Assembly: GCA_903843285.1 (NCBI GenBank)
Contig: CAIMPC010000039.1
Span: forward strand, 44,886 to 108,885
DNA from: Candidatus Omnitrophota bacterium
Lineage (GTDB): Bacteria; Omnitrophota; Gorgyraeia; 2-01-FULL-45-10
Reading direction: 5' to 3'
Length of the DNA stretch: 64,000 bases
Shown one piece after another: positions 11,064-19,545 of the stretch (position 1 is the stretch's first letter; the number at the start of each line of letters is the position of its first letter). A program made the position numbers and the translations under genes. Below the pieces are notes generated by a model. The model had not been told where the DNA came from. It ran no database searches and saw nothing but the letters and a program-made list of their open reading frames with translations.

Positions 11064-11157
11064 GGATTTTTTCGCACGCACCATAGTTAGGCATTTACTT
11101 TTGGGTGGTGCCTTCGCTTATCGCAAATTTGATTAGTCATACAAATTTGCCGTTGTG
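11064..11157 (+). repeat. repeat family B, copy 1 (short; immediately after stop codon)
   Basis: GATTTTTTCGCACGC...TTTACTTTTGGGTGGTGCCTTCGCTTATCGCAAATTTG...CAAATTTGCCGTTGT. Shares 30-40 nt blocks with the copies at 22741 and 28278. Confidence 0.65.
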
Positions 11158-11178
11158 ATCTACGAGAGGAGAGTCGAG

Positions 11179-11595
11179 ATGAAAAAGGTTGTCGCAATGT
11201 TTGCGTTATGTCTGGTGATGAGTGGCTGTGCGACGTCGGGAAATATATGGAAGGAGATCGCGGGCACTTCTACGCAAGAGATCGAAGAGACCAGGGTGGA
11301 TGCGGTCTCTAAGGTATTCGAATACGATTATAAGACCTGTTATTTTAATGTGGAGAAACTCTTAAATAAGATGCCAAAGATCTCCATCTATTCTAAAGAC
11401 AATAGCACGATAGCCGTCTATTTTATAAATCCGGACACCACGCCTGTGGGGCTTTTTTTTAAGGAGATAGATTCGACTCATACGCAAGTGGAGATATCAT
11501 CACCGAGTACCCCCGCAAAGGAATGGGTTGCTAAGAACATATTCACTGAGACGGTTCAGGAACCCCAGAAACTTATAACAAAGGGCGGTATTTAA
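11179..11595 (+). CDS. hypothetical lipoprotein
   Basis: MKKVVAMFALCLVMSGCATSG lipobox (LVMSGC). RBS GAGAGGAGAG upstream of the ATG at 11179. No recognisable domain. Confidence 0.6.
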   Translation: MKKVVAMFALCLVMSGCATSGNIWKEIAGTSTQEIEETRVDAVSKVFEYDYKTCYFNVEKLLNKMPKISIYSKDNSTIAVYFINPDTTPVGLFFKEIDSTHTQVEISSPSTPAKEWVAKNIFTETVQEPQKLITKGGI

Positions 11596-14655: not shown

Positions 14656-15806
14656 ACGAGCTATCAGTTGATACGAAGAATGACGCCACTCATACCCATC
14701 ACCGCCCAACCTGGGCAGATATAGACCTAAGGGCCATAGAGTATAACTTCAAGCAGGTCCGAAAGCTCATCGGTAAAGACGTTCATATTATGACTGTGGT
14801 GAAAGCCAATGCCTATGGCCATGGTACCATCGAGGTCTCCGAAGTCCTTGAGCGCTCGGGCGTTGACTATCTCGGCGTCGCTACCACCGATGAGGCGGTG
14901 CGAATTAGAGATCATAATATTAAGACTCCGATACTCGTCCTGGGTTCAGTGCTTCCGTCTGAGGTTGCGGTAGCCGTGGAGAGAGATATTACCCTCACCA
15001 TCTGTGACGATGAGCTTCTCGATGCCATCAGAAGCCGGACCGCGCACGGCGGAAGATTAAAGGCACATATTAAGATAGATACCGGCATGGGCCGCGTCGG
15101 GATATGGCACGAAGATGCCCTCGGTATTATTAAGAGGATATCGTCGGAAAAAGGTATTTTACTGGAAGGTATATATACGCATTTCTCGAGCGCCGGACGC
15201 GACGATTTCTTCACCGCTTATCAAATAGAGGCGTTCGAAAAGCTGTTATCGTCGATAGAAAAGAATTGGATAAAAATACCTCTTAAGCATGCCGCAAATT
15301 CCATCGCCACGGTAGACTTCCGCAGGTCCCATCTGAATCTGGTCCGCCCGGGCCTGATAATATATGGCATGTATCCTAAGCACACATTTCCTAAACTTAT
15401 TAAGCTTAAACCCGCCCTGGAATTGAAGACAAAAATAGTTTTTATAAAAGATACTCCTCCGGGGCGCTCGATAAGCTATGGCCGCACATTCATCACCCAA
15501 AAACACACTAAGATCGCGACTTTGCCAATAGGTTATGCCGATGGTTTCGGGAGAAAGCTCTCGAATAAGGCCGAGGTCCTGATAAGAGGCCAGCGCGCCA
15601 GAGTGGTGGGGAAGGTTACTATGGATCAGACAATGATAGATGTCGGCCATATTAAAGGCGTAAAGGTCAGCGACGAGGTAGTGCTGATAGGCAGACAGGG
15701 CAAAGAAGAGATCAGGACCGAAAACCTTGCCCGCATGGCAGATTCCATAGCCTACGAAGTCATCTGTGGTATATCAAACCGAGTTCCCCGAATTTATAAG
15801 AGATAA
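14652..15806 (+). CDS. alr: alanine racemase
   Basis: PLP site VVKANAYGHG; 384 aa; C-terminal beta domain. Confidence 0.9.
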   Translation: MNELSVDTKNDATHTHHRPTWADIDLRAIEYNFKQVRKLIGKDVHIMTVVKANAYGHGTIEVSEVLERSGVDYLGVATTDEAVRIRDHNIKTPILVLGSVLPSEVAVAVERDITLTICDDELLDAIRSRTAHGGRLKAHIKIDTGMGRVGIWHEDALGIIKRISSEKGILLEGIYTHFSSAGRDDFFTAYQIEAFEKLLSSIEKNWIKIPLKHAANSIATVDFRRSHLNLVRPGLIIYGMYPKHTFPKLIKLKPALELKTKIVFIKDTPPGRSISYGRTFITQKHTKIATLPIGYADGFGRKLSNKAEVLIRGQRARVVGKVTMDQTMIDVGHIKGVKVSDEVVLIGRQGKEEIRTENLARMADSIAYEVICGISNRVPRIYKR

Positions 15807-15858
15807 TCTTCGCTACAAACAGATAGTTCCGCAATTAGTCAACATGGAGGATGATACA

Positions 15859-17766
15859 GTGAAAAAATATAGTGCATTAATTTCGACGTTAGCCCTAATA
15901 TTTTTTTCCTTTAATGTGGTAGTGATTGACTTTGCGTTTGCGCTTGCCCCCAGAATTGCCTCACAGGATCCCGATGAGATAGAGCGTATATATGCCGGAG
16001 GCCAAAAACTTTTTGCCGCGATGAGAGGGCCCGGAAGCGAGTTACCCCTTAGGGCGTATAAGCCGGGCTGGCAACGTCCGGCGAAAGTTGAAGGTGGAGA
16101 GCCAGTGGTTCGCGGGCTCGATTTTGACGGAATCGATTATGCTTCCATTCCCGAAGGTTGGTACAAAAATCTGATACTTTCAAAGACTACAGATCTCGTG
16201 AGAGCATTTAAAATCTTTAAGGAAGATGAAGCGCGGCTTTCATATAATTATGGTGTGACGGAGGGCTACTGGGAATTAAAGAAAGGCGGCGATGGAGAGA
16301 TCCCTATATGTCGATGGGAGCGCCATAATGTTACCGGGCAATGGACGCTCGTGATTCATCCGGATTTTATCAGAATGTGGAAAGACATACGAGAGAATGA
16401 CGTTTGGTTTGAATATACTTTTCCGGATGGCAAGACGAGGACCGTTAGCCTGGCATGGGCAATATTCTATCGTGTGGCGAAGCACGAAATGACGGACTTG
16501 GATATGAGGCTACGTACAGCAAAAGGGAGCGGTTTGGGGCATATTACTAGCGGTGATGTATCCAGTGGACATGTATTTGTTAGTCAAGACGAAGAATCCG
16601 CTAACAGAATCGGTGGTAGATATGCACTGGTGAACGATGCGATATGGATGTGGTTTCTGGGCTCATACTGCTTTCCGGGGTACAGCGCTAAGTATAATTC
16701 CAATGTAGCAAGGGCCAGATATTTATGGTTTCTTGGAAGCTATAAAGGATATAACTCGAAGAATCTTAATGCCAAAGCAGTTGAGCTCGGGTTTAATAAG
16801 GAATTTCCAGATCTGATCAGTGATTCTGACGCGAGAGATAGAGCGATCGACATAGCCGTTGCGGTCAATCACAGGTTTTACAGCAAATATATCAGGACGG
16901 AAGCTACAGATAGAGAGAAGAAGATGCGTAATGAGCATGTCAAAAGCCATGGAAAATTTAGACATAGCGTCGGTGATACCATTTACGCGGCAGGAATGGG
17001 GTTTTCCACCGCAGAAGAAGGGATACTCGCAAGGATCGATACAAATATGGATGCGAGCTCTATCGGTGACTGCCCGGGAGTTACTGATTCCGAACCGTCA
17101 GTTATGGACAGGGTGCTATTCTATCCATTCTTTAAAGAGCTTAACACTCAAAATGTTGAAATATACATTCCGCAGGGTCTATTATTGACGCCTTCGGTGG
17201 AGAGCGCAGTAAAAAGCCTAAACGAACGCATTCGCCAAAGGCGTGATGGAGATGGTCTCCCCGAATGCGCCGGCGTTAAACCCATTGAGATTAAGAAGTA
17301 TAATGCCATGAATTTAGATAAGATGTTGGCTCGGAAAGATAGTGGTTCAAGAAGGATATTTGTTGCCGACCAATCGACTGTAGGAGATTTTAGAATGCTA
17401 CTGGATAGTGGCAGGCAGGATTTATTTAGGGGAAATCGATTGTTGACAGCCGATACGCCGCAAGTAAATGATGATACAGAAAATTCCGTGCATCAGGCGT
17501 GGCTGATTAAGGTTGCCATGCTATCATGCCTCCTAACTGAAGATAACTATATGACGGTTGGTACAGCCCTGGAACAAGAGATAAATGGTAAGATAGAGGA
17601 TAATGCTGAAGAATATATTTCAAGATTAGCTCAGGTTAGCAAGGAAAACTTGGATAATAGGGACGTTTCAAGCCGTGTGAACTATTTTCTCGGTAAAGTT
17701 GTGAGGCTAAGCCAATTGGTGGCTGAACAGCTTAAGATCCTTAAGGCGTTCTGGACCGCGGCGTAG
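15859..17766 (+). CDS. hypothetical secreted protein, no recognisable domain, internal WFLGSY repeats
   Basis: Long ORF with RBS GGAGGA 7 nt upstream of the GTG at 15859. N-terminus KKYSALISTLALIFFSFNVVVIDFAFALA-P looks like a signal peptide with an AxA site. I recognise no catalytic motif. Confidence 0.5.
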   Translation: MKKYSALISTLALIFFSFNVVVIDFAFALAPRIASQDPDEIERIYAGGQKLFAAMRGPGSELPLRAYKPGWQRPAKVEGGEPVVRGLDFDGIDYASIPEGWYKNLILSKTTDLVRAFKIFKEDEARLSYNYGVTEGYWELKKGGDGEIPICRWERHNVTGQWTLVIHPDFIRMWKDIRENDVWFEYTFPDGKTRTVSLAWAIFYRVAKHEMTDLDMRLRTAKGSGLGHITSGDVSSGHVFVSQDEESANRIGGRYALVNDAIWMWFLGSYCFPGYSAKYNSNVARARYLWFLGSYKGYNSKNLNAKAVELGFNKEFPDLISDSDARDRAIDIAVAVNHRFYSKYIRTEATDREKKMRNEHVKSHGKFRHSVGDTIYAAGMGFSTAEEGILARIDTNMDASSIGDCPGVTDSEPSVMDRVLFYPFFKELNTQNVEIYIPQGLLLTPSVESAVKSLNERIRQRRDGDGLPECAGVKPIEIKKYNAMNLDKMLARKDSGSRRIFVADQSTVGDFRMLLDSGRQDLFRGNRLLTADTPQVNDDTENSVHQAWLIKVAMLSCLLTEDNYMTVGTALEQEINGKIEDNAEEYISRLAQVSKENLDNRDVSSRVNYFLGKVVRLSQLVAEQLKILKAFWTAA

Positions 17767-17790
17767 CTGAATTACAGGTCAAATTTAGTA

Positions 17791-17827
17791 AAAATAGTCC
17801 CGAAAGTGCTCCCGGGGCTATTTTGTT
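17791..17827 (+). terminator. rho-independent terminator hairpin followed by a T-run
   Basis: AAAATAGTCCCG-aaagtgctc-CCGGGGCTATTTTGTT immediately after the orphan ORF. Confidence 0.55.
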
Positions 17828-17855
17828 GACAAAATATACGCTATTATAATATAAT
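17826..17855 (+). promoter_or_regulatory. sigma70-like promoter for ilvD-ilvBNC
   Basis: TTGACA (17826-31), 18-nt spacer, TATAAT (17850-55). GGAG RBS at 17880-83 before the ilvD ATG at 17890. Confidence 0.5.
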
Positions 17856-17889
17856 CAATCTCTTAATTACTATTAGAATGGAGAAATAT

Positions 17890-19545
17890 ATGCGCAGTGA
17901 TAAGATAAAAAAAGGTATTGAAAGAGCGGGTGCCAGGAGCCTATTATATGCTACAGGCATATCGAAAGAGGATATGGCCAAGCCGTTTATAGGTGTGGTG
18001 ACTTCGAGGACTGACCTTATTCCGGGCCATATTCATATGCCCAGATTAGAACGTTTCATAGAACGCGGGATTGCCTCCGGTGGCGGGGTGCCGTTCTTCT
18101 TCGGTGTTCCGGGTATTTGTGATGGTATCGCTATGGGACATACAGGGATGCGATATTCGCTCGCCTCACGTGAACTGATAGCCGATATGATAGAGTGCGT
18201 TATGAAGGCTCATTGTCTGGACGGACTGGTCTGCCTTACAAACTGCGATAAGATTACCCCCGGTATGTTAATGGCGGTAGGCCGATTGAATGTACCATCA
18301 ATAGTAGTGACTGCAGGGCCTATGATGAGCGGAAACTTAAAAGGCAGAAGACTATCGCTGGTTAAGGACACGTTCGAGGCTGTCGGAAGATGTAAAAAGG
18401 GCGAGATATCGCAGGATGAGCTGGCCGCTTTAGAGATGTGTGCATGCCCCGGCGCCGGAGCCTGTCAGGGGCTCTATACCGCGAACTCTATGGCTTGCGT
18501 CACCGAGGCCCTTGGGATGAGTGTTCCTGGATGCGCGACGGCACTTGCCGTCTCGGCGAAGAAAGATAGGATAGCTCAAGAGTCGGGTGAGAAGATCGTG
18601 GGTCTGGTGAGGCGCAATGTACTGCCGAGGACCATCTGTCGTCGTGAGGCTTTTGAGAATTCGATCAAGGTCGATATGGCGCTCGGCGGGTCCACGAACA
18701 CGGTTTTACATATAATTGCAGTGGCGAAGGAGTTTGGTATAGATATTCCTCTAGATGTATTTGATAAGATATCCAAGTCGACGCCGCACATTTCCAATAT
18801 ATTGCCCGGCGGTCAGCATTTTATGGAGGATCTGGAGTCGGCAGGTGGAATACCGGCTATAATAAAGCGCATGAAGAACCAATTAAATGATGTGATGACC
18901 GCCAGCGGGAAGTTGATAAGCCAGATAGCAAACGAGGCCCAGATACTTGACGACGATGTTATTCGCGATTATAAGGGCGCTTACCATAAAGAAGGCGGAA
19001 TAGCAGTATTGAAGGGTAATCTCGCTCCGGAAGGCGCTGTCATAAAACAGACGGCCGTTTCGGAAGCAATGATGAAGTTTAAAGGAAAGGCTCGCGTCTT
19101 CGATTCGGAAGAATTGGCGATGCAGGCCATAATGGCAGTAAAGATAAAAAAGGGTGATTGCGTGGTTATCCGCTATGAAGGACCGAAGGGTGGGCCGGGT
19201 ATGAGAGAGATGTTGTCTCCGACGGCGGCTATAGTCGGAATGGGTTTGGCTGACGATGTTGCGCTTATCACCGATGGAAGGTTTTCAGGCGGCACGCAGG
19301 GACCTTGTATAGGTCATATTTCACCCGAGGCCCAGGAGGGCGGGCCAATAGCGATAATCCAGGAAGGCGATGAGATAATCATCGATATCCCTGCGAGGAA
19401 GATAGAATTGAACGTTGCGGAATCGGAAATAAAGGCGCGTCTTGCGAAATGGAGAGCTCCGGAGCCCAAAGAGAAGGAAGGGTATCTGGCGCGTTATGCG
19501 AAGGCTGTTACTTCCGCATCCGAAGGAGCAGTGTTAAAGGCATGA
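17890..19545 (+). CDS. ilvD: dihydroxy-acid dehydratase
   Basis: [24 protein letters not shown]-terminus, [11 protein letters not shown], and the Fe-S cysteines. Confidence 0.95.

Follow-up and report, generated by a model that had tools for sequence, protein, structure and literature searches.

The 635-residue protein encoded between alr and ilvD in this Omnitrophota genome is a cargo-free member of an undescribed modular family, which forms part of a phenomenon already known from this phylum, that of exported multi-enzyme proteins. Family members are built from a signal peptide, an N-terminal domain (N-domain) of ~320 residues, a middle that varies from 38 to 4,208 residues, and a C-terminal domain (C-domain) of ~240 residues. 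The gene is an old resident of the alr-ilvD locus, vertically inherited and lineage-specific. The explanation favored here, to which we give about an even chance of being correct, is that the protein represents the exported, empty chassis of this carrier family, in which a zincin-like N-module would serve as a hydrolase coupled to the C-module. The positions of the relevant features within the window, i.e. the whole stretch of 64,000 nucleotides that was analyzed, are collected in Table 1.

Table 1. Features of the gene and its immediate surroundings, in window coordinates
Feature	Position	Strand	Basis or remark
Shine-Dalgarno sequence GGAGGA	15846..15851	+	7 nt 5' of the GTG start; read from sequence
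CDS, 635 aa, GTG start, TAG stop	15859..17766	+	cargo-less member of the Omnitrophota N-domain/C-domain family
Predicted Sec-type signal peptide, aa 1-28 (MKK / h-region / NVVVIDFAFA, then LAP)	15859..15942	+	sole hydrophobic segment and family pattern
Conserved N-domain, aa ~31-350, at the N terminus of all family members	15949..16908	+	profile search, AF2 model
Putative metal/catalytic motif H209-E210-M-T-D213...G227-H228...E245-x-x-A-N249	16483..16605	+	within the zincin-like core
Two consecutive helices, WMWFLGSY (aa 263-270) and YLWFLGSY (aa 288-295)	16645..16743	+	two copies, different codons
Short linker, replaced in other members by 150 to 4,200 aa of cargo	16909..17073	+	predicted disordered, aa 359-410
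Conserved C-domain, aa ~406-635: flavodoxin/CheY-like α/β part, then helical bundle	17074..17763	+	predicted fold
C-terminal end F-W-T-A-A, almost invariant among family members ([KE]FW[TIV][AY]A)	17749..17763	+	
Intrinsic-terminator-like hairpin, 12-bp stem, 10-nt loop, U tract	17791..17827	+	RNAfold
Sigma-70-type promoter TTGACA-18-TATAAT preceding ilvD, shown for context	17826..17855	+	12/12 match

Reading frame, transcription signals, and leader peptide

The open frame spans 15766 to 17766, and the GTG codon at 15859 is its best start. Translation from this codon yields a protein beginning MKKYSAL, and the N termini of homologues likewise begin MKK. The ATG codon at 15844 was rejected as the start because it would add MEDDT, giving an acidic n-region, and because it overlaps the ribosome-binding site. 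The reading frame of ~635 codons and its own ribosome-binding site, both proposed in the initial annotation, were confirmed, as were the terminator hairpin behind the gene and the consensus sigma-70 promoter before ilvD.

No promoter or terminator was detected by scanning the + strand of the 52 nt between alr and the reading frame, which therefore looks like the last cistron of a thiL-tsaE-tsaB-alr unit. The downstream hairpin (17791-17824) has a folding energy of −15.8 kcal/mol with z = −3.6 (RNAfold). The terminator scan called it on the minus strand only, its + strand loop being longer than the 8-nt limit of the scan. An A-run lies upstream of the hairpin and a U-run downstream. It could function as a two-way terminator; no convergent gene is evident. 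A search of positions 15000-18500 against Rfam gave no match, and no second copy of either the N-domain or the C-domain was found elsewhere in the window.

The sole hydrophobic segment of the protein comprises residues 3-34, and the leader within it can be divided into MKK, LISTLALIFFSF, and a segment ending AFA↓L, where the arrow marks the predicted cut. It has the properties of a Sec/signal peptidase I substrate: a positive n-region, an h-region within the usual 7-15 residues, and small residues at −3 and −1. The same plan recurs throughout the family, in which leaders typically consist of 2-3 Lys/Arg residues, an h-region of ~12 residues, a polar break, and a strict small-x-small site. All 99 motif-carrying leaders (99/99) have Ala, Ser, Cys, Thr, or Val at −3, Gly or Ala at −1, and Leu at +1, with a median predicted cut site after residue 26. 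The leader of the query shares the subtype N-x-x-x-x-D-[YF]-A-F-[AG]-L-A with loci L005, L021, and L022.

The N terminus had been recognized as signal peptide-like in the initial annotation, which placed cleavage directly before a proline (ALA↓P). Given that proline at +1 is disfavored for signal peptidase I, cleavage after residue 28 (AFA↓LAP) is the likelier assignment. The query protein very probably carries a cleavable Sec signal peptide, and the signal peptidase I-type pattern makes export, or anchoring in the N-in orientation, the default prediction; we infer one or other of these outcomes, cleavage included, from the primary structure of the leader. A different type of leader is present in the same genome. 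Translated from an internal Met, a small open reading frame at 11155-11595 (+ strand) of the window begins MKKVVAMFALCLVMSGC..., a signal of the lipoprotein type in which MSGC resembles a lipobox.

A family with constant end modules and a variable middle

Searches of Pfam, NCBIfam, PHROGs, PADLOC, and PDB sequences returned no match to the 635-residue protein, in keeping with the absence of a recognizable domain noted in the initial annotation. The same libraries gave no match for a 42-sequence N-domain profile or for its members, and neither Pfam (2025) nor NCBIfam (2026) has a model for the N-domain or the C-domain. By contrast with its earlier description as an orphan, the protein has numerous relatives. 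The first protein search identified eight, of 811-1,103 residues, and those with named sources were all from Omnitrophota metagenome-assembled genomes (MAGs). These proteins share ~350 N-terminal and ~230 C-terminal residues with the query and carry unrelated enzymes in between, namely alanine dehydrogenase, 2-hydroxyacid dehydrogenase, and xylose isomerase. When 1.84 billion representatives were searched exhaustively with an HMM of the N-domain, 155 clusters (50% identity) were recovered, and 110 of these had E ≤ 1e-30. The N-domain was located at residues ~30-330 in all 155 clusters, in proteins of 590 to 4,765 residues.

Local profile searches detected both end domains in 85 of the 156 family proteins examined, with a median middle of 722 residues; the 58-residue linker of the query is the second shortest. 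In DNA loci that were fetched for comparison, the C-domain was also present in 31/31 complete reading frames with an N-domain, and each of 19 further frames with the N-domain only was cut by the end of its locus. The leader and C-domain occurred without an N-domain in three reading frames, so that the C-module can exist alone. The query was matched by the N-domain and C-domain profiles with hmmsearch E-values of 5.6e-121 and 1.4e-82, respectively. It possesses the family leader, an N-domain with the WxWFLGSY, AKHE, and NDVW motifs, and a C-domain ending FW[TIV][AY]A, and it carries the family residue at every invariant column of both domain alignments. Other short members without cargo are P0027, with a middle of 38 residues, P0093, P0081, and P0076.

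Among matches in genome collections, the titles referred to Candidatus Omnitrophota, to Ca. Aadella of the same phylum, or to “uncultured Planctomycetia” (TPA MAGs), and every named source of the family is a MAG from Omnitrophota or the PVC group. When the C-domain and N-domain alignments were used in word-indexed profile searches, only 4 and 5 short proteins, respectively, were found, and the family was not enlarged; this type of search missed long members that were recovered exhaustively, and its negative results for domains in long proteins need to be read with caution. A metagenome scan with the C-domain alignment matched patterns, of which none was confirmed. No conserved partner genes were found beside family members, and the contexts of L001, L002, and L003 differ from one another.

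The N-domain was modeled by AF2 with a pLDDT of 89.5 and a pTM of 0.90; the pTM of the full-length model was 0.48. The N-domain model conforms to the zincin fold, which is defined by a small mixed β-sheet, a backing helix, an active-site helix, and then a “glutamate helix.” H209 and E210 lie where the helix after the sheet ends and are conserved in 127/129 and 116/129 family sequences, respectively. The position four residues after H209 is Asp in 86 of the 129 sequences, Glu in 12, and His in only 2, i.e. an acidic residue is kept in 98/129. Strict membership of the HEXXH gluzincins or metzincins was rejected on this ground, the second His being not conserved and mostly replaced by Asp or Glu. 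H228 (123/129), in the G227-H228 pair, is an alternative candidate ligand, and E245 (113/129), which belongs to the ExxAN motif and starts a helix 35 residues after H209, is a candidate third ligand. The model thus points to a zincin-like (minigluzincin-like) core with the motif HExx[D/E]...GH...ExxAN. The N-module may be a catalytically active metal-dependent peptidase, but with an acidic residue in place of the second His in most members, canonical zinc binding is not guaranteed. A Foldseek comparison of the full-length model with the PDB gave no match at E ≤ 0.001.

The internal tandem motif reported in the initial annotation corresponds to WFLGSY, which is present at residues 265-270 and 290-295. 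The first copy is a hallmark of the family, and the second occupies the helix that reads “RLxWFF” in the family. Recent tandem duplication of the DNA was rejected as the origin of this pair. The two copies differ in 4/6 codons, which indicates that the repeat has been kept at the protein level and is no fresh duplication.

The C-domain is always situated at the very end of family proteins, which finish [KE]FW[TIV][AY]A. In a distant subgroup (P0114-P0152), the match to the N-domain is confined to its core (profile positions ~120-290), and the C-domain profile is not matched. Many members of this subgroup still end ...[VIL]x[TSLA]AA, e.g. VITAA, VLAAA, or ILEAA, which suggests that the terminal Ala-Ala may itself be the conserved feature. 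Nonpolar C termini are recognized by tail-specific proteases and by ClpX, and a terminal Ala-Ala resembles such signals.

The middle regions are diverse. Pfam assignments among family members include enzymes and other domains (AlaDH, transketolase, 2-hydroxyacid dehydrogenase, NUDIX, hexokinase, GT9, histidine phosphatase, LRR, and the xylose isomerase domain XylA2_C), together with a receiver domain, RNAP α CTD, DeoR and AbiEi HTH, CsrA, and sigma-70 region 2. These cargo modules are of a cytoplasmic type and are ATP/NAD-dependent or nucleic acid-binding. Three consecutive long genes were observed at L003:670-19312, on the same contig as L042. The first encodes 2,377 residues with the family leader and C-domain, no N-domain, and epimerase, aldolase II, and AlaDH domains; the second is a family member of 1,103 residues with xylose isomerase; and the third encodes >2,742 residues with FGGY kinase, galactokinase, transketolase, and transaldolase. 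A 170-residue reading frame with a similar leader separates the second gene from the third. From its domain content, this group of three long genes looks like a xylose-to-pentose phosphate pathway set.

Conservation and composition of the alr-ilvD locus

According to the initial annotation, the gene had been inserted into a run of housekeeping genes and was an acquired accessory gene. Comparison with related genomes contradicts both statements. The gene order thiL-tsaE-tsaB-alr-X is kept in six related contigs (L005, L020, L021, L022, L033, and L046), in which Alr is 69-78% identical and X is a family member in every case. In L020 and L046, X lies exactly between alr and ilvD, and IlvD is 83-90% identical. 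The query groups with L005, L021, and L022 in a neighbor-joining tree of N-domains. The G + C fraction of the reading frame is 0.449, compared with a window mean of 0.463 (S.D. 0.024), and its synonymous codon score (z = −0.32) is ordinary beside those of its neighbors. No tRNA, integrase or other mobility genes, or flanking repeats were seen around it. Conserved synteny, the grouping in the tree, and native composition together indicate that the gene was not acquired.

Identity between the N-domains of these contigs is only 40-46%; judged by these values, the gene is evolving much faster than its neighbors encoding Alr and IlvD. Length and content vary as well. The positional orthologues in all six contigs are 1,713 to >3,000 residues long, as opposed to 635 residues in the window; their lengths include 1,713, 1,831, >1,717, >2,243, and >2,713 residues, the last three being lower bounds for genes that run off the end of their contigs. 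The cargo comprises PFK in L020, aldose 1-epimerase in L022, hexokinase in L005, and hexokinase with aldolase II and GHMP kinase in L021; L046 has no Pfam match. The locus resembles a hotspot at which domains are gained and lost, between flanks that are 69-90% identical. In L046 (10570-11263), ~700 nt separate the family gene from ilvD, compared with 111 nt in the window.

Known systems and alternative explanations

The closest known zincins are the minigluzincins projannalysin (4JIX), proabylysin (4JIU), and selecase (4QHF), together with related zincins, i.e. M48/M56 catalytic domains and Wss1/WLM. The N-domain has no sequence-level similarity to these proteins. It differs from them in having HExx[D/E] in place of HEXXH and in its size, which is greater by a factor of about three and includes additional strands at the N terminus and a helical subdomain rich in Trp. 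It also follows a signal peptide and is part of multidomain proteins that occur only in Omnitrophota. In proabylysin, the C-terminal tail of the protein itself reaches the zinc and blocks the enzyme (PMC5557861).

Within the phylum, the nearest counterparts are the long or giant multi-enzyme proteins (10.64898/2026.06.07.730766; 10.1101/2023.11.21.568195), which likewise combine a signal peptide with enzyme domains of cytoplasmic type, including hexokinase. Long Omnitrophota proteins with signal peptides or transmembrane helices and many metabolic Pfam domains have been described, and their topology was noted as puzzling (10.64898/2026.06.07.730766). N-terminal regions of the giant proteins either have no annotated domains or contain a peptidase beside the signal peptide, and these C39 or S8 modules were proposed to cleave the proteins that carry them (10.1101/2023.11.21.568195). 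Those studies cover proteins of at least 10,000 residues, whereas the present family ranges from 590 to 4,765 residues and the copy in the window is free of cargo. No description of the N-domain, the C-domain, their pairing, or the FWTAA end was found in either report. On the evidence of the model, the zincin-like N-module would be a third type of N-terminal peptidase-like domain in long Omnitrophota proteins.

The architecture also resembles that of autotransporters, of T9SS cargo with its C-terminal domain, and of polymorphic toxins, in that an N-terminal Sec signal and a variable “passenger” are combined with a constant C-domain and a conserved end. The variable part of the present family, however, has constant modules on both sides, and conserved neighbors with a cognate secretion or immunity function are lacking. 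An autotransporter or T9SS C-terminal domain was rejected because the predicted C-domain is α/β and helical, with no β-barrel or β-sandwich.

In the favored explanation, the leader would take the protein across the inner membrane or anchor it there, and the N-module would be a metal-dependent hydrolase, with a peptidase as the likeliest type. Co-occurrence of the N- and C-modules, the near-fixed C terminus, and the blocking of proabylysin by its tail suggest that the two ends work together. The N-module may cooperate with the C-module either by processing or releasing the middle or by binding the C-terminal tail as in proabylysin, a form of latency; the window copy, with no cargo, would retain the activity of the chassis only. 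A bolder version holds that the chassis exports interchangeable enzymes and regulators outside the cell, onto its surface, or into a host or prey, and that a tail-latent N-module frees them on arrival. We regard it as distinctly unlikely; if it were true, the window gene would be a bare chassis and alr-ilvD a site of cargo swapping between related genomes. The three reading frames with a C-module but no N-module count against the favored explanation. Counting against export is the nature of the cargo, which needs ATP, NAD, or nucleic acids and is a poor fit with a periplasmic or extracellular location. The same cargo (hexokinase, PFK, transketolase, AlaDH, sigma-70 region 2, CsrA, RNAP α CTD) would suit a membrane-tethered cytoplasmic scaffold, in which an uncleaved anchor holds the body on the cytoplasmic face and metabolic enzymes are kept at the membrane; the window copy would then be a scaffold devoid of enzymes, and its HE motif would have a structural role. 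Moreover, stand-alone hexokinase is present in only 25/176 complete Omnitrophota genomes (10.64898/2026.06.07.730766), so that the cargo enzymes may be the cell's own. Such a scaffold is nevertheless rather unlikely, given that the small-x-small site in 99/99 leaders predicts N-in orientation, signal peptidase cleavage, and a body outside, and that DeepTMHMM places multi-enzyme long proteins behind signal peptides (10.64898/2026.06.07.730766).

The difference in length from the six positional orthologues, and an N-domain so much less conserved than Alr and IlvD, would also be consistent with a decaying remnant, i.e. an ancestral long cargo gene that has lost ~1,100 to 2,400 residues through deletion and is functionless or being lost. 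The frame is intact, though, with a good ribosome-binding site and terminator and normal codon usage, the family-invariant residues are all kept in both domains, and short members exist independently elsewhere in the family; decay is a quite improbable reading of the gene. The remaining explanation is that of the initial annotation, a horizontally acquired gene for a secreted effector, adhesin, or toxin lying between alr and the ilv operon. It accounts for the signal peptide, the lack of a known domain, the gene's own terminator with the fresh ilvD promoter, and the faster evolution than its neighbors. It conflicts with the retention of the position in six related contigs (both flanks being present in two), with clustering among positional orthologues, with native G + C content and codon usage, with surroundings devoid of mobility genes, repeats, and tRNA, and with the lack of adhesin-type repeats and toxin domains. 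Acquisition of this kind is very improbable indeed, whereas a role as an effector, adhesin, or toxin is, taken by itself, possible.

Thus, a large unknown reading frame amid housekeeping genes is alone no sign of horizontal acquisition, which is a lesson for annotation. The gene itself is ordinary in its genome, and the point of interest is the family to which it belongs. The Omnitrophota comprise uncultured bacteria of ultra-small size that probably depend on hosts, and it is an open puzzle that their long proteins join signal peptides with metabolic enzymes. The family described here makes this puzzle tractable, with two well-defined end modules that are absent from Pfam and NCBIfam and a conserved locus at which related genomes differ mainly in cargo (PFK, hexokinase, aldolase, epimerase, or none). 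The cargo-free member of 635 residues is small enough for expression and offers an experimental handle on the whole family, and with it on the choice between exported, processed polyproteins and membrane-tethered metabolons as the nature of the long multi-enzyme proteins of these organisms.
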